The notes under the pieces were generated by a model, which saw only the letters and a program-made list of their open reading frames with translations, did no database searches and was not told the origin of the DNA. From IMG/VR virus record IMGVR_UViG_2778261122_000007, positions 1 through 29,245 of that record: DNA of 29,245 bases, one strand, 5' to 3'. Positions 1 to 9,940 of this stretch are shown piece by piece. How positions within the stretch are numbered: position 1 is the stretch's first letter; each line of letters opens with the position of its first letter. Position numbers and translations under genes: made by a program. Source of the stretch: a virus. Taxonomy: Duplodnaviria > Heunggongvirae > Uroviricota > Caudoviricetes.

Positions 1-567
1 TATCGCGTCCTCAACAATGAATTTTGTGATGCGGTGCCTGGTGCCTCCAGGTGACGTTAACCAGTTAACAATTAACGCCGGATACAGAGAATCCACCCAT
101 GACACTGTTTTTGGTTTTAACTGTTCCGCGTGCGCTCAGCCGCATTCACCGCATCACAAAATTCACTTTAAAAAGGGCGGCAGAGCAGTCACGGAGTAAA
201 ACTGATACCGCCAAACGTCACCAGAAAATTGATAACAGAGGGCGTTGCAGCGGGGTTGTCACTTAAGCGTATGGTCAACCTGACAACCCGGTGTCCTCAA
301 CGGGGAAGGAATAACCCCGCCATACTTACCGTCGCGCCATTTCGCGGAGTGCCACAACCGGAAGCGCACGGTCGAAGAAAATTTAACGACAGACTATCTA
401 TGAACCAGCAACCTCGCCGTGCGCTTTCGCGTTATGCTCTGACTTTTCAGGGAAATATCCTTTCAGTAAACTGTCAGTGCCGGATGCTGACCCGTGTCCG
501 GCGCACGCACTCCACCTCACCCGTGGAGAACTCCTTAATTACCAACCTTAGCTTCGTTGGTTAGCTA

Positions 568-857: not shown

Positions 858-1214
858 TTACTCGAGAGGAAATTGGTTATGAATACAATCAAGTTTTCTT
901 GCCCAGAATGTGGTGGCGAAGTCTTTGACACATCCTTTAAGCCGCAGGGCTCTGACAGTTTCGCGGGAGCCATCTGCAAAAATTGTGGTCACCTTGTAAC
1001 TGAAGATGAGTCCTCGCAGTTCGATGACGAAATCGTTGACAATATCTTCGGTGCACTCACCAGAGACTTTCTGAAGTAAAGGCGCATACCGCTTAGTTAC
1101 CGCTCTGATAACTCTTACCTGTCCGGCAATGGCGCTGATATCAATATAAAGCGCCATCGCTGTTTCTTTGCTGATCCCTGGACGCCTTCCATTCTGATGT
1201 TTGACTTCGCCCAC
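858..1214 (-). CDS. hypothetical protein (118 aa), possible first gene of a leftward PL-like operon; overlaps and may be mutually exclusive with 879-1079 (+)
   Basis: ORF from the track; GTG start at 1214 preceded by GAGGA; lies downstream of a candidate leftward promoter/operator at 1395-1445; contains several AGA/AGG/GGA codons, which weakens the call. Confidence 0.3.
   Translation of the reverse strand: MGEVKHQNGRRPGISKETAMALYIDISAIAGQVRVIRAVTKRYAPLLQKVSGECTEDIVNDFVIELRGLIFSYKVTTIFADGSRETVRALRLKGCVKDFATTFWARKLDCIHNQFPLE
879..1079 (+). CDS. small zinc-ribbon protein (67 aa; CPECGG ... CKNCGH)
   Basis: ATG at 879 with GAGAGGA Shine-Dalgarno at 864-870; two CxxC pairs about 27 residues apart, typical of a zinc ribbon; clean codon usage. 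Fully overlapped by the antisense ORF 858-1214. Confidence 0.4.
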   Translation: MNTIKFSCPECGGEVFDTSFKPQGSDSFAGAICKNCGHLVTEDESSQFDDEIVDNIFGALTRDFLK

Positions 1215-1394: not shown

Positions 1395-1445
1395 ATATAA
1401 TGTACTTTGCGTTCATTGTTGTAAAGTACTTTTAGTACATTTTGT
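1395..1445. promoter_or_regulatory. candidate OL/PL-like operator-promoter region downstream of the repressor gene
   Basis: AATGTACT at 1399-1406, its inverted copy AGTACATT at 1434-1441 and AAAGTACT at 1423-1430; TATAAT/TATATA at 1394-1400 readable on either strand; the same ATGTACT motif recurs at 1960-1966 and 1984-1990 on the other side of the repressor. Confidence 0.35.
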
Positions 1446-1515
1446 GTGTAAAAAAATGAGATGGGATAAAGTGAAGCACAAACCCGGAGGAAGGCACTAC
1501 CGGATTTATGCTGGT

Positions 1516-1935
1516 TTAAGAGGCTTTTTGTTTTTTCTTTCGTGCTAACTCTTCGTAAATTGCATTGTACTTCTGTTTTTTCTCTTCAAGAGTTTTTAAA
1601 AGTTCATCTGTCTCACTGTCAGGGAGCTCGTCCAGAAGGTCAATGATGATTTTTTGTCTTGGATTTAACTCCTGATAGAAACGTACCTGTCCACTTTCTT
1701 CTGTATCCTCTCCCAAAAGATAGGTTGGTGTTGTTCCTATTAGTGTTGCTAATTCCCTTAATTTCTCCCGGCGAGGAATTGTTTCGCCATTAAACCATTT
1801 GCTAACCGCTTTTGGTGTTAATTTCATTCGACGGGCAATTTCTGCCTGCCTTCCATGTTGTTCATAACCAGCGTTTTCACAGGCTAGCGCAAGCCTACTG
1901 GCGAACTCTTTACGCGCTTTATCTTCATGAACCAT
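1516..1935 (-). CDS. prophage repressor, XRE-family helix-turn-helix (DicA/CI-like)
   Basis: 139 aa; HTH segment (MKLTPKAVSKWFNGETIPRREKLRELATLIGTTPTYLL) followed by an acidic/coiled C-terminal tail, the same architecture as DicA as I recall it; divergent from a Cro-like gene. Confidence 0.85.
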   Translation of the reverse strand: MVHEDKARKEFASRLALACENAGYEQHGRQAEIARRMKLTPKAVSKWFNGETIPRREKLRELATLIGTTPTYLLGEDTEESGQVRFYQELNPRQKIIIDLLDELPDSETDELLKTLEEKKQKYNAIYEELARKKKQKAS

Positions 1936-2014
1936 AAGTTCAATGATATTCGCTCTTGAATGTACTGTCAGTTCTGTTATAGCATGTACTCAAAGTTCAC
2001 ATTGTGAGGGTGAT
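1936..2014. promoter_or_regulatory. divergent promoter/operator region between repressor and cro-like gene (OR-like)
   Basis: 79-bp gap between divergent genes; direct repeats of ATGTACT at 1960-1966 and 1984-1990; inverted repeat TCACA-TT-TGTGA around 1996-2006; GAGGG Shine-Dalgarno at 2005-2009. Confidence 0.5.
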
Positions 2015-2269
2015 ATGAACCAGAAAACACTTGAAGATGTAATCAAAACTGTTCGCGTTGCTGTTGTGGCCGACGTTTGTGGTGTCAGCCAAAGAGCAAT
2101 CTATAAATGGATGGATAACGGGAAATTGCCTCGCACAGAATATACCGGCGAAACAAATTACGCTGAAAAAATCGCTCTTGCATCAAACGGATTATTTTCT
2201 GCCGATGCAATTTTAACTATTGGCAGGAATAAAACTACTACGAAAAAGCTGATGGGAGTTGATTCATGA
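2015..2269 (+). CDS. Cro/DicC/YdaS-family small HTH regulator
   Basis: 84 aa from ATG 2015 (the track ORF starts earlier at 1943); GAGGG Shine-Dalgarno 5 nt upstream; HTH-like segment CGVSQRAIYKWMDNGKLP; divergent from the repressor. Confidence 0.75.
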   Translation: MNQKTLEDVIKTVRVAVVADVCGVSQRAIYKWMDNGKLPRTEYTGETNYAEKIALASNGLFSADAILTIGRNKTTTKKLMGVDS

Positions 2270-2691
2270 AAATCAAGCATGAACACATCCGCATGGCGAT
2301 GAATGACTGGGCGCGTCCTGATGGTGAAAAAGTTCCGGCAGCTGGAATAACCCAGGCTTATTTTGAGTTGGGTATGACGTTTCCTGAACTGTACGACGAC
2401 AGCCATCCGGAAGCCCTGGCTCGCAATACCCAGAAAATTTTCCGCTGGATAGAGAAAGACACCCCTGATGCAGTTGAAAAAATTCAGGCGTTGTTACCAG
2501 CGATCGAAAAGGCAATGCCACCTTTGCTGGTGGCCAGAATGCGCAGCCACAGTTCAGCTTATTTTCGGGAGCTGGTGGAGACGCGGGAGCGACTGGTGAG
2601 AGACGCTGATGATTTTGTCGCAGTGGCAATCGCCGGTTTCAATCAGATGAACCGTGGTGGCCCGGCAGGAAATGCTGTGGCAGTACATTGA
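2266..2691 (+). CDS. YdaT-like protein (CII-like regulator/toxin family of Rac-type prophages)
   Basis: 141 aa; start overlaps the upstream stop (ATGA); N-terminus MKIKHEHI and C-terminal ...VH match my recollection of Rac YdaT; position after the cro-like gene is as in Rac (ydaS-ydaT-ydaU). Confidence 0.65.
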   Translation: MKIKHEHIRMAMNDWARPDGEKVPAAGITQAYFELGMTFPELYDDSHPEALARNTQKIFRWIEKDTPDAVEKIQALLPAIEKAMPPLLVARMRSHSSAYFRELVETRERLVRDADDFVAVAIAGFNQMNRGGPAGNAVAVH

Positions 2692-6499: not shown

Positions 6500-6653
6500 T
6501 TTCATATTGGCGAGGTAACGGTAGTTAAGTAGAATTGCTGCGGGTGCTTGAGGCTATCTGCCTCGGGCATGAACACCAACGGCAGATAGAGAAAAGCCCC
6601 AGTTAACATTACGCGTCCTGCAAGACGTTTAACATTAATCTGAGGCCATATCT

Positions 6654-6713
6654 ATGCGACACATAGAGATTAGCCTCTTACGGACCGAAAGGTCAAGGAG
6701 AAGCAGGCTATGA
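6654..6713 (+). CDS. mok-like leader ORF (19 codons) translationally coupled to hok
   Basis: ATG 6654 to TGA 6711-6713; the stop overlaps the hok start (ctATGa). Classic mok is longer, so this is an inference. Confidence 0.3.
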   Translation: MRHIEISLLRTERSRRSRL

Positions 6714-9630: not shown

Positions 9631-9706
9631 GGCCCTTTAGCTCAGTGGTGAGAGCGAGCGACTCATAATCGCCAGGTCGCTGGTTCAAATCCAGCAAGGG
9701 CCACCA
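9631..9706 (+). tRNA. tRNA with CAU anticodon, Ile2 (lysidine) type, ileX/ileZ-like
   Basis: Manual cloverleaf: acceptor GGCCCTT/AAGGGCC, anticodon arm GCGACTCATAATCGC, T-loop TTCAAAT, encoded CCA; very close to my recollection of E. coli ileX. Confidence 0.8.
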
Positions 9707-9707
9707 A

Positions 9708-9784
9708 CCGCCACTAGCTCATCAGGAAAGAGCGTCAACCCTTTAAGTTGAGTGTGCGAGGTTCGAGTCCCCGGTGGCGGTCCA
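9708..9784 (+). tRNA. tRNA-like gene, anticodon loop CCUUUAA (apparent anticodon UUU, Lys); non-canonical C33 and an A-C mismatch in the T-stem
   Basis: Manual fold: acceptor CCGCCAC/GTGGCGG, D-arm GCTC/GAGC, anticodon stem TCAAC/GTTGA, T-loop TTCGAGT, encoded CCA. Identity is uncertain; it could be a degenerate or specialised tRNA. Confidence 0.5.
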
Positions 9785-9786
9785 GT

Positions 9787-9862
<76 letters not shown>

Positions 9863-9865
9863 TAT

Positions 9866-9940
<75 letters not shown>

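Follow-up and report, generated by a model that had tools for sequence, protein, structure and literature searches.

The region surrounding the repressor gene of the virus record IMGVR_UViG_2778261122_000007, analysed here over positions 1 to 29,245 (29,245 nucleotides, referred to as the window), very probably serves a lambdoid E. coli prophage as its lambda-style immunity switch, with operators of the HK022/933W family. The original prediction had proposed an OL/OR-type layout around a single repressor, and this layout is supported by four lines of evidence: homology to HK022 and 933W, a weight matrix scan, the footprint of polymorphism among related loci and the retention of the layout in diverged relatives. 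The further proposal that this one repressor would control a cro promoter directed rightward as well as a PL-like promoter directed leftward is supported by the same four lines. The components of a lambdoid OL/OR cassette are all found, namely divergent repressor and cro genes with OR and a second operator set over a putative leftward promoter.

The heptamer ATGTACT, on which the prediction had been built, was found on re-reading of the sequence exactly where it had been placed, that is, at 1960-1966 and 1984-1990 of the plus strand and, downstream of the repressor gene, as AATGTACT (1399-1406, plus strand), AGTACATT (1434-1441), which is the reverse complement of AATGTACT, and AAAGTACT (1423-1430). 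As an operator, however, the heptamer is only a part: it amounts to one flanking base together with positions 1-6 of a half-site in a 15-bp pseudo-palindrome with the sequence (T/A)G(T/A)AC-N5-GT(T/A)C(A/T), the second half-sites of which (GTTCA, GTTCT and GTACA) were absent from the earlier reading. A search of the whole window for the heptamer returned five matches against 2.07 expected, a count which is not significant alone (five or more matches in 6 of 100 shuffles), whereas the longer pattern TGTACT-N4-GTTC with at most one mismatch was matched seven times against 1.09 expected; none of 100 shuffles reached seven, and five of the seven matches fall inside the two regions flanking the repressor gene. 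The above-chance signal is the longer site together with its placement, beyond the bare heptamer.

For the matrix scan, a 15-bp weight matrix trained solely on the operators of HK022 and 933W was run over the 29-kb window. The five highest-ranking sites (13.9-19.4 bits) were OR3, OR2, OR1, OL1 and OL2, all of which fit the HK022/933W-type definition of G-(A/T)-A-C at positions 2-5 of each half with a variable centre; the sixth-ranked site scored 9.97 bits. The best score of a shuffled window averaged 11.6, with a 95th percentile of 14.6, so that OL1, at a slightly lower 13.9, is not significant by itself. An extra copy of ATGTACT on the minus strand (2682-2688) belongs to no longer site. In HK022, a CI operator is located ~300 bp downstream of OR (PMC8053113), and the matrix finds a site in HK022 324 bp past OR; as a far-right operator of this kind, the copy at 2682-2688 was rejected and treated as chance, no 15-bp site being present there among the matrix top 20. 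Chance recurrence of an AT-rich heptamer in AT-rich intergenic DNA, devoid of function, would suit the heptamer count and this stray copy, but it does not explain why the 15-bp sites are the five best in 29 kb for a matrix derived from other phages.

Both direct repeats noticed in the gap between the repressor and cro genes lie in operators, although OR holds three sites rather than two. OR1 (TGTACTCAAAGTTCA, 1985-1999; matrix score 18.5) can be aligned both with the HK022 OR1 and with the OR1 annotated in phi24B/933W, and sits just 3' of the PR -10, over the predicted PR start. OR2 (TGTACTGTCAGTTCT, 1961-1975; 16.8) is situated inside the PR spacer. OR3 (TGAACCATAAGTTCA, 1928-1942), which the earlier reading did not include, has the best score in the window (19.4) and covers the repressor ATG together with the predicted PRM start; its minus-strand sequence, TGAACTTATGGTTCA, is the same as that of OR3 of HK022, and its counterpart in phi24B is likewise annotated as OR3. 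The centres of OR1 and OR2 are 24 bp apart, those of OR2 and OR3 33 bp.

The PR-like promoter (1956-1985, plus strand) is composed of a -35 hexamer TTGAAT (1956-1961) and a -10 hexamer lying somewhere in 1978-1985, which is ambiguous and weak, being either TATAGC (16-bp spacer, upstream TG) or TAGCAT (18-bp spacer). These hexamers were identified by visual inspection and through alignment with HK022 and with the annotated pR -35 and -10 of phi24B (GenBank HM208303); the promoter did not reach the threshold set for the promoter scan. The PRM-like promoter (1943-1971, minus strand; 10 of 12 consensus positions in the promoter scan) has its -35, CTGACA, at 1971-1966 and its -10, TATCAT, at 1948-1943. 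OR2 overlies this -35: the centre of OR2 contains CTGACA on the minus strand, and the form CTGA(C/T/A)A is kept across all relatives, while the centres of the other operators are not. In the GenBank record of phi24B, pRM begins at CTGAAA, the equivalent of the OR2 centre. The CTGACA-17-TATCAT element stops 7 nt short of the repressor ATG, and the PRM start is predicted at or beside the ATG (1935), which would yield a leaderless repressor mRNA; the pRM start annotated for phi24B is located 1 nt ahead of cI, and leaderless mRNAs have been described for paaR2 and lambda cI (PMC8630535). The sequence layout is that of a tripartite OR, in which OR3 overlies the leaderless cI start and the PRM -35 lies within OR2.

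Downstream of the repressor gene, the OL region can be aligned base for base with OL/PL of HK022. OL1 (TGTACTTTGCGTTCA, 1401-1415; matrix score 13.9) and OL2 (AGTACTTTTAGTACA, 1425-1439; 18.1) align with their HK022 counterparts, and their centres are separated by 24 bp, equal to the OR1-OR2 distance. The putative PL promoter (1397-1425, minus strand) consists of a -35 TTTACA (1425-1420) located between the two OL sites, a 17-bp spacer and a -10 CATTAT (1402-1397), with a predicted start at ~1390; it was found by the promoter scan with 9 of 12 consensus matches and is homologous to TTTACA-17-CATCAT of HK022. OL1 occupies the space between -35 and -10, and OL2 lies just upstream of the -35, which it overlaps by 1 bp. 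It had been suggested that a TATATA element might serve as a -10 on either strand; the leftward -10 does overlap TATATA, yet the hexamer itself, judged by homology, is CATTAT. A rightward promoter at the plus-strand TATAAT (1396-1401) was rejected on inspection: TATAAT has no usable -35, transcription from it would enter the hairpin at 1402-1429, and the conserved TTTACA belongs to the minus strand. No equivalent of OL3, which in HK022 and Raoultella is found 53 bp from OL2, was detected in the window by the matrix. The PL leader was likewise rejected as the source of a put-like antitermination RNA, of which HK022 has an example (putL) at the same position: segment 1215-1392 (minus strand) folds no better than shuffled sequences do (z = +1.0), and the leader matches no Rfam family even at E values up to 5.

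The hairpin at 1402-1429 offers another reading of the 1399-1441 segment, namely that it is mainly an intrinsic terminator, in which the inverted repeat GTACTTTGCG...TGTAAAGTAC and a T-run after it would halt plus-strand transcription, e.g., that of the zinc-ribbon gene (873-1079, plus strand; RefSeq annotation), before it enters the repressor gene in antisense. The terminator scan does flag 1402-1429 plus the T-run on the plus strand, the plus-strand fold is favourable (-13.7 kcal/mol, z = -3.2), and pairing of the stem tolerates the variants that are common at 1409 and 1410. On the other hand, the stem contains just three G-C pairs, unlike the stable GC-rich stem, conserved through compensatory changes, of a rho-independent terminator, and its 10-bp length is clade-specific; in HK022, Salmonella and Raoultella pairing would be limited to the self-complementary GTAC cores (4-6 bp), while the operator half-sites and promoter hexamers remain invariant where the long stem is missing. 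Moreover, the plus-strand gene to be terminated is missing from 78 of the 80 related loci described below, the minus-strand fold of the OL hairpin does not reach significance (z = -1.65), and the repressor transcript has a far superior candidate terminator at 1475-1512. Termination as the primary function of the plus-strand hairpin, which is not conserved in relatives, was dismissed; such a reading is very unlikely, and the OL hairpin has at most a secondary, clade-specific role of this kind.

The cassette was found in at least 80 IMG/VR loci. The loci are near-identical, and since the repressors are at least 99% identical in all 80, the set was used for delineating mosaic boundaries and for the polymorphism footprint, not for repressor-operator covariation. 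Within 1390-1450, none of the 20 half-site positions is polymorphic, as opposed to 17 of the 41 others (Fisher p = 0.0005); with the -35 and -10 hexamers counted together with the half-sites, the figures are 1/29 versus 16/32 (p = 4e-5). The half-sites of OL1 are nearly invariant, with changes in single loci only, and it is the central positions 1409 and 1410 that vary; variation in OL2 is mostly confined to the centre (1430-1434), and changes in its half-sites occur in one or two loci of the 80. A common variant at position 1399 converts the -10 CATTAT to CATCAT, the HK022 form.

The layout has also been retained at much greater distances. Relatives with repressors 89%, 65% and 62% identical to the one studied here possess three OR sites (24 and 33 bp apart) and an OL pair (24 bp), and the same layout of three plus two sites, with the same spacing, accompanies an S24-type repressor which shares the N-terminal domain only. 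At the K-12 Qin dicA locus, which served as a negative control, no sites of the HK022 type were found by the matrix. The matrix ranking, the sparing of the half-sites by polymorphism, the 24-bp spacing on both sides of the repressor gene and the layout kept in diverged loci leave the chance reading with a negligible probability; the matrix, the footprint and the conservation of the layout have effectively refuted it.

The same comparison bears on whether the OL pair is accompanied by a promoter at all. The two sites could be auxiliary operators, acting as a loop anchor or in autoregulation, with ydfC, DicF and dicB transcribed from elsewhere; in keeping with this, PL matches the consensus at just 9 of 12 positions, and HK022 CI does loop OL to OR (PMC8053113). 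However, TTTACA, the 17-bp spacing, the CAT of the -10 and its final T are invariant in six diverged loci, the flanks of which have diverged wholly. The OL pair of Salmonella and Raoultella is located 0.9-1.7 kb past the repressor gene, beyond cargo genes and beside TTTACA-17-CAT..T, so that with cargo in between the sites stay with the promoter-like element and not with the repressor gene. In addition, the homologous OL of HK022 has a pL promoter (PMC8053113), and dicBp, which occupies the corresponding position in Qin, is a promoter that has been mapped (PMC10448788). Operators without a promoter at OL are considered very unlikely.

The repressor gene (1516-1935, minus strand) encodes a protein of 139 aa with a Pfam HTH_3 match, in which an HTH of the HK022/933W type is followed by a short DicA-like helical tail. 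It is 47% identical to HK022 CI (aa 4-102) and 51% identical to 933W-type CI (aa 1-73). That the N-terminal domain is only ~50% identical to those of HK022 and 933W CI is a point against assigning the switch to this family. The recognition region, LTPKAVSKWFNGETIPR, is close to VTPKAISKWFNGESIPR of HK022 and LSSKGVSKWFNAESLPR of 933W, and the recognition helix KAVSKWFNG is nearly identical to KAISKWFNG of HK022 (KGVSKWFNA in 933W). K42 and K46 (933W numbering), which were shown by mutagenesis to be base contacts of the 933W repressor (PMC3317979), are kept in the 139-aa protein, and residue 41 is P versus S in 933W. BLASTP against K-12 DicA gave 29% identity over aa 30-137 (112 aligned residues, E 5e-15). 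DicA, unlike the S24 domains found in the repressors of HK022, 933W and Raoultella, can be aligned with the tail, and Pfam detects HTH domains alone, with no Peptidase_S24 domain. An HTH, a DicA-homologous tail of ~50 aa and a gene upstream of a dicBF-type operon are the attributes of a DicA-type short repressor, all present here.

The divergent Cro-like gene (2015-2269, plus strand) codes for 84 aa, 60% identical to HK022 Cro and assigned to phrog_35 (transcriptional repressor). It might be argued that the sites serve mainly this protein and that the 139-aa HTH protein has another target, the Cro-like protein being nearer to its HK022 counterpart than the repressor is; YdaS of CP-933P, moreover, footprints over the same region as PaaR2 (PMC8630535). 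Such an arrangement is extremely improbable, given the repressor's nearly HK022-like recognition helix and the retention of K42 and K46. To our knowledge, repressor and Cro share their operators in all characterised lambdoid switches, hence the reading is not truly exclusive of a switch governed by the repressor.

The repressor is 100% identical to the CI protein of phage Tritos, which is live and temperate and expresses CI in the lysogenic state (PMC9928086). The prophages reported as induced by ciprofloxacin did not include Tritos, the production of which fell slightly under trimethoprim (PMC9928086), behaviour that fits a repressor lacking the S24 domain.

Two genes, 568-786 and 858-1214, had been named as targets of the leftward promoter. 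The former is ydfC (minus strand; RefSeq annotation of near-identical loci, phrog_1744), the first conserved gene of the leftward operon. The latter is not a gene: the minus-strand ORF at 858-1214 has no Pfam match, RefSeq annotates the zinc-ribbon ORF on the opposite strand, and the segment is found in just 2 of the 80 related loci. Further along the leftward operon, the DicF small RNA was identified at 175-226 (minus strand; Rfam RF00039, 76.7 bits); dicB lies past the window edge and adjoins DicF in loci L001, L002 and L092. With this gene order, PL would feed ydfC-DicF-dicB. Four nt past the repressor stop codon, a hairpin with a 13-bp stem (1475-1512, minus strand; -20.2 kcal/mol, z = -5.7), with the polymorphic positions 1491, 1492, 1494 and 1496 in its loop, is the likely terminator of the PRM transcript, parting PRM from OL/PL.

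The PL leader, OL, the terminator, the repressor gene, OR and cro together make up an immunity cassette (1243-2290), which is present in 76-80 of the 80 loci, as compared with 2 of 80 for its left flank (~850-1200) and 44 of 80 for its right flank (beyond ~2300). The cassette is inherited as a unit, and the nearest relative of the whole window carries a different cassette within the same backbone.

In the proposed switch, the 139-aa repressor most likely binds the 15-bp pseudo-palindromes as a dimer. Occupancy of OR1 and OR2 would cover the PR start and spacer and shut off the cro promoter, occupancy of OR3 would cover the PRM start and the ATG, resulting in negative autoregulation, occupancy of OR2 could either activate or repress PRM, and OL1 and OL2, occupied across the PL spacer and -35, would silence the early-left operon ydfC-DicF-dicB. 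The Cro-like protein probably acts on the same sites with a reversed order of preference. We infer binding, promoter activity and starts from this arrangement, as well as cooperativity and OL-OR looping across ~560 bp; since the repressor shares no related C-terminal domain with HK022 CI and the 933W repressor is reported to be non-cooperative, cooperativity and looping would not be simply transferable. Because the tail is DicA-like and an S24 domain is absent, induction would presumably follow a route other than RecA-stimulated self-cleavage.

The predicted protein shows an HK022-type DNA-binding domain joined to a DicA-type tail that would not undergo SOS cleavage. The S24 module is found in HK022 and in the Raoultella relative, the DicA-like tail here and in Salmonella; a single operator code served by two unrelated C-terminal modules is a tentative generalisation, to which we would give somewhat less than even chances, and the same applies to what follows from it. 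If the 139-aa protein binds HK022-type operators, the prophages could be blind to SOS and still repress incoming phages of the HK022 type (cross-immunity). A swap of tails would then alter the mode of induction with the operators untouched, and the slot between repressor and OL would be one that cargo has entered repeatedly, examples being the HigB toxin pair and the 480-aa AAA ATPase. An uncleaved tail of the DicA type would also account for Tritos not being reported as induced by ciprofloxacin. The analysis provides a testable map of five operator sites and three candidate promoters for a cassette widespread in E. coli prophages, carried by no fewer than 80 IMG/VR loci, among them that of the live phage Tritos from LF82, a strain associated with Crohn's disease. 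The repressor is an uncharacterised variant, with operators of a kind already mapped in HK022 and 933W; as the switch logic is textbook lambdoid biology, the conceptual gain is small.

Of the known switches, that of HK022 was compared using operator positions taken from the HK022 genome sequence; the source for its immunity region is Carlson & Little 1993, cited through PMC8053113. HK022 has a general OL/OR layout with 53 bp from OL2 to OL3, its CI is cooperative on adjacent operators and loops OL to OR, and its OL element, with the pL promoter, controls the leftward lytic operon (PMC8053113). The two systems are alike in their operator sequences, which nearly coincide, in the identical OR3, located over a leaderless cI start, in the aligned OL2-PL-OL1 block including TTTACA-17-CAT(T/C)AT, and in the spacings of 24, 33 and 24 bp. 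They differ in the repressor, which in HK022 is a 235-aa protein with an S24 self-cleavage/oligomerisation domain as opposed to 139 aa with a DicA-like tail, and in the weak OL3 and far-right operator of HK022, neither of which the matrix finds here. Moreover, PL of HK022 drives nun and carries putL, whereas PL here is predicted to drive ydfC-DicF-dicB behind a leader devoid of significant structure, and the place of CII is taken by a YdaT-type protein.

The switch of the Stx phages 933W/phi24B, studied by the Koudelka lab, shares the three OR and two OL sites, OR3 over the cI start, the leaderless pRM and its -35 within OR2. The 933W repressor recognises a 15-bp symmetric site with its specificity in positions 2-5, G-(A/T)-A-C, T being preferred at position 3, and is reportedly non-cooperative on adjacent sites (PMC3317979). 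The core conserved here is exactly this G-(A/T)-A-C specificity core, but 933W favours C at position 1 (CGTAC) where T or A is found here, and its C-terminal domain is of the S24 type, unlike that of the present repressor.

With DicA/DicC of Qin, a cryptic prophage of E. coli K-12, the cassette has in common the order of a cro-like gene, a short repressor gene and a leftward promoter, here a putative one, leading to ydfC-DicF-dicB, as well as the homologous C-terminal tail of DicA without the Ala-Gly/S24 cleavage module. In Qin, the antirepressor Rem relieves DicA-type repression. The recognition helix of DicA is VSVSQWERG versus KAVSKWFNG here, and the DNA specificity differs; Qin is defective, whereas the present cassette also occurs in the live phage Tritos. 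Operators have been reported on either side of dicA, and dicBp, the positional equivalent of PL here, is a mapped promoter repressed by DicA, from the transcript of which DicF is processed (PMC10448788).

CP-933P of E. coli O157:H7 differs in its operator consensus, which is of the GTTTAGTAA type and unrelated to the sites described here, and in the toxin-antitoxin pair that follows the repressor gene in the same operon. It nevertheless resembles the present switch in its components: the repressor is short and made from a leaderless mRNA, a Cro-like protein is present, and YdaT is the CII equivalent (PMC8630535, PMC9986795). PaaR2 and YdaS act at both OR and OL of CP-933P, the PL promoter of which has been shown experimentally (PMC8630535), and the YdaT site at its ydaS/ydaT junction, TTGATT-N6-AATCAA, has an exact match here at 2259-2276.

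The window belongs to a lambdoid E. coli prophage and carries a 139-aa HTH repressor gene (1516-1935, minus strand), followed on the plus strand by genes for a Cro-like protein (2015-2269) and a YdaT-type CII equivalent (2266-2691). The minus strand also encodes ydfC (568-786) and the small RNA DicF (175-226; Rfam, 76.7 bits), after which dicB comes in related loci. Strain LF82 carries a plaque-forming prophage, phage Tritos (PMC9928086), and the CI protein of Tritos matches the repressor at 100% identity. In its N-terminal domain the repressor shares 47% identity with HK022 CI (aa 4-102) and 51% with the 933W-type CI encoded by phi24B (aa 1-73); its recognition region is hardly altered (LTPKAVSKWFNGETIPR in the window, VTPKAISKWFNGESIPR in HK022, LSSKGVSKWFNAESLPR in 933W), and the 933W contact lysines K42 and K46 are both kept. 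HK022 Cro and the Cro-like protein share 60% identity. The repressor tail does not align with an S24 peptidase domain; it aligns with the tail of K-12 DicA (29% identity, E 5e-15). At the junction of the cro stop and the ydaT start (2259-2276, plus strand), TTGATTCATGAAAATCAA matches exactly the published YdaT site TTGATT-N6-AATCAA, and the footprinted OM site next to PRE in CP-933P is located alike. The plus strand further carries a sok antitoxin RNA (6542-6712), which hokD adjoins in relatives, and, downstream of the Q region, four clustered tRNA genes (9631-9937).

According to the original prediction, the motif ATGTACT flanks the repressor gene on both sides. It is indeed read at 1960-1966 and 1984-1990, and the downstream set is present as AATGTACT (1399-1406), AAAGTACT (1423-1430) and the reverse complement AGTACATT (1434-1441), so that the repetition is confirmed throughout. 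The count of the bare 7-mer is unremarkable (5 in the window versus 2.07 expected, equalled in 6 of 100 shuffles). The notable point is that the copies form parts of a longer site. When up to one mismatch is allowed, TGTACT-N4-GTTC is found at 7 places versus 1.09 expected, a number reached in none of 100 shuffles, and five of the seven matches fall in the two repressor-flanking regions. As defined by experiment, the site of the 933W repressor is a rotationally symmetric 15-bp sequence with specificity at positions 2-5, G-(A/T)-A-C, where T is favoured at position 3 and contacts are made by K42 and K46 (PMC3317979). These lysines are conserved here. ATGTACT thus corresponds to a flanking A plus half-site positions 1-6; the copies are real, but the operator is the 15-bp site.

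A symmetrised weight matrix was derived from eight HK022 and 933W operators, with no window sequence used. The five best-scoring sites of the window were OR3 (1928-1942, 19.4 bits), OR1 (1985-1999, 18.5 bits), OL2 (1425-1439, 18.1 bits), OR2 (1961-1975, 16.8 bits) and OL1 (1401-1415, 13.9 bits), the sixth scoring 9.97 bits; in shuffled windows the best score averages 11.6, with a 95th percentile of 14.6. Centre-to-centre distances are 24 bp for OR1-OR2, 33 bp for OR2-OR3 and 24 bp for OL1-OL2. The proposed layout with operators on both sides of the repressor gene is thus retained, but OR holds three sites, including OR3, which covers the repressor start codon and had been overlooked, and OL two. 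The matrix also recovered the known extra HK022 operator beyond OR, and found no HK022-type sites in the K-12 Qin dicA locus, taken as a negative control. Near HK022 cI, TGAACTTATGGTTCA, GGAACTGATAGTACA and TGAACTTATGGTTCA lie upstream and ATGTACTATTGGTACTTTACATTAATGAACTTTAAGTACATCAT downstream. A weak operator-like sequence recurs in the gap from ydfC to DicF: in the window (467-481, TAAACTGTCAGTGCC, 8.6 bits), in Tritos (L002 3838-3852, GGCACTGACAGTTTA) and even in Qin, which has no repressor of the window type (L085 2629-2643, GGAACTGACAGTTTA, 12.6 bits); it is probably unrelated to the switch.

A promoter scan placed PRM on the minus strand at 1971-1943 (CTGACA-17-TATCAT). Its -10 ends 7 nt before the ATG, and therefore a leaderless repressor mRNA is implied, resembling the leaderless pRM annotated in phi24B; leaderless mRNA has been demonstrated for PaaR2 and lambda cI (PMC8630535). 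Alignment suggests a plus-strand PR with a -35 TTGAAT (1956-1961) and a weak -10 within 1978-1985, OR2 sitting in its spacer and OR1 over the predicted start. The leftward PL-like promoter expected downstream of the repressor was located by promoter scan at 1425-1397 (minus strand) as TTTACA-17-CATTAT, homologous to TTTACA-17-CATCAT of HK022, with OL1 in its spacer and OL2 adjoining its -35. Two details had to be revised, however: the -10 is CATTAT rather than the palindromic element first proposed, and the downstream genes are ydfC, then DicF and dicB. Where Tritos and Qin have ydfA and ydfB, the window has a segment (~850-1200) with a plus-strand zinc-ribbon gene (873-1079, ‘ECs_2282 family’); a leftward transcript would cross this segment antisense.

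Directly 3′ of the repressor gene, 4 nt past its stop codon, the minus strand can form a hairpin with a 13-bp stem (1475-1512, -20.2 kcal/mol, z = -5.7), the polymorphism of which is confined to the loop (1491, 1492, 1494, 1496). It is likely the terminator of the repressor transcript, insulating PL from it. A plus-strand hairpin at 1402-1429 might be regarded as the function of the downstream motif set, but it arises incidentally because the GTAC cores are self-complementary, and its long stem is unconserved in HK022, Salmonella and Raoultella.

Among 80 IMG/VR loci with a repressor at least 99% identical to that of the window, a block from ~1243 to ~2290 is common to 76-80, whereas the left flank (~850-1200, the zinc-ribbon segment) occurs in only two and the right flank in 44, as would be expected if the block were an immunity cassette. 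The closest whole-window relative (NZ_CP148323; L092 2908-3881) has the same backbone and another immunity cassette, with a repressor of the LexA family and a cro gene that is frameshifted, and illustrates cassette exchange at these boundaries. With 34 haplotypes within 1390-1450, the OL region (1385-1455) varies among the 80 loci, while in the repressor-OR stretch (1516-2016) the protein is at least 99% identical and OR matches that of the window exactly in 52; nearly all OL-region changes lie outside half-sites. When positions varying in at least three loci were counted as polymorphic, this applied to 0 of 20 half-site positions versus 17 of 41 others (Fisher p=0.0005), and to 1 of 29 versus 16 of 32 when the -35 and -10 were added to the half-sites (p=4e-5), both p values being rough as the loci are mutually related. 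Variation resides in the operator centres (1409, 1410, 1430-1434) and the inter-operator spacer (1416-1419); a frequent change at 1399 converts CATTAT to the HK022 form CATCAT.

The diverged relatives comprised one E. coli locus (repressor 89% identical), a pair of loci from Salmonella (65% and 62%) and one from Raoultella, the repressor of which has only the N-terminal domain in common with that of the window and bears an S24 domain. All retain three OR sites 24 and 33 bp apart, OR3 on the start codon, and an OL pair 24 bp apart. The OL pair lies ~0.9 kb past the repressor gene in Salmonella, beyond a HigB-type toxin gene and an HTH gene, and ~1.7 kb past it in Raoultella, beyond a gene for a 480-aa AAA ATPase; because such cargo separates the two, the pair tracks the leftward promoter and not the repressor 3′ end. 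The cargo (L086 3053-3720, L087 3088-3755, L091 3308-4750) occupies the position of rexAB in lambda, which suggests that morons or defence genes have repeatedly settled in the repressor-to-OL gap. In one Salmonella locus the 151-aa repressor call (L087 2501-2956) begins upstream of OR2 and OR3; the position of OR3 (2539-2553) points to the ATG within that site as the true start, which would give ~138 aa as in L086.

When six OL regions are aligned, all four half-sites are invariant, as are TTTACA and, in the -10, the initial CAT and the last T; centres, spacers and flanks diverge. An operator pair serving looping alone, without a promoter, is difficult to reconcile with such constancy of the -35 and -10 and with the mapping of dicBp, the equivalent promoter, in Qin (PMC10448788). 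Among the OR sites, OR2 alone keeps its centre, CTGA(C/T/A)A, in keeping with its additional function as -35 of PRM. A chance origin of the repeats is excluded by the matrix ranks, the avoidance of half-sites by polymorphism and the layout kept in diverged loci.

The best-supported reading of these sequences is a standard lambdoid switch, so that the OL/OR interpretation of the original prediction is upheld in its corrected form. The predicted repressor would block PR from OR1 and OR2 and, from OL1 and OL2, PL, thereby silencing ydfC-DicF-dicB; occupancy of OR3 would restrict PRM, and Cro would act at the same operators. From the observed sites, homology and conservation we infer that the repressor binds, where transcription starts, that binding is cooperative and that OL and OR are looped together across ~560 bp. 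HK022 CI is cooperative and loops OL-OR over ~700 bp (PMC8053113), but the repressor of the window has a different C-terminal domain, and non-cooperative binding has been reported for the 933W repressor (PMC3317979). Induction is likely independent of repressor self-cleavage, because the tail is DicA-like and lacks S24, repression by DicA is lifted by the antirepressor Rem rather than by RecA (PMC10448788), and Tritos is absent from the prophages reported as ciprofloxacin-induced, trimethoprim slightly lowering its production (PMC9928086).

No paper on the operators of this very cassette was found, the Tritos paper being silent on them. The layout has counterparts with experimental support: the operators match HK022 and 933W, the repressor architecture and downstream operon match Qin DicA-dicBp, and the YdaS/YdaT partners match CP-933P. 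The window aligns with the immunity regions of both HK022 and phi24B, the GenBank record of the latter listing three 15-bp operators, pR and pRM arranged in the same way. Domain shuffling among lambdoid repressors has already been documented (PMC3202840); the mildly new point would be that one operator code appears to be read by repressors whose C-terminal modules are of two unrelated kinds.
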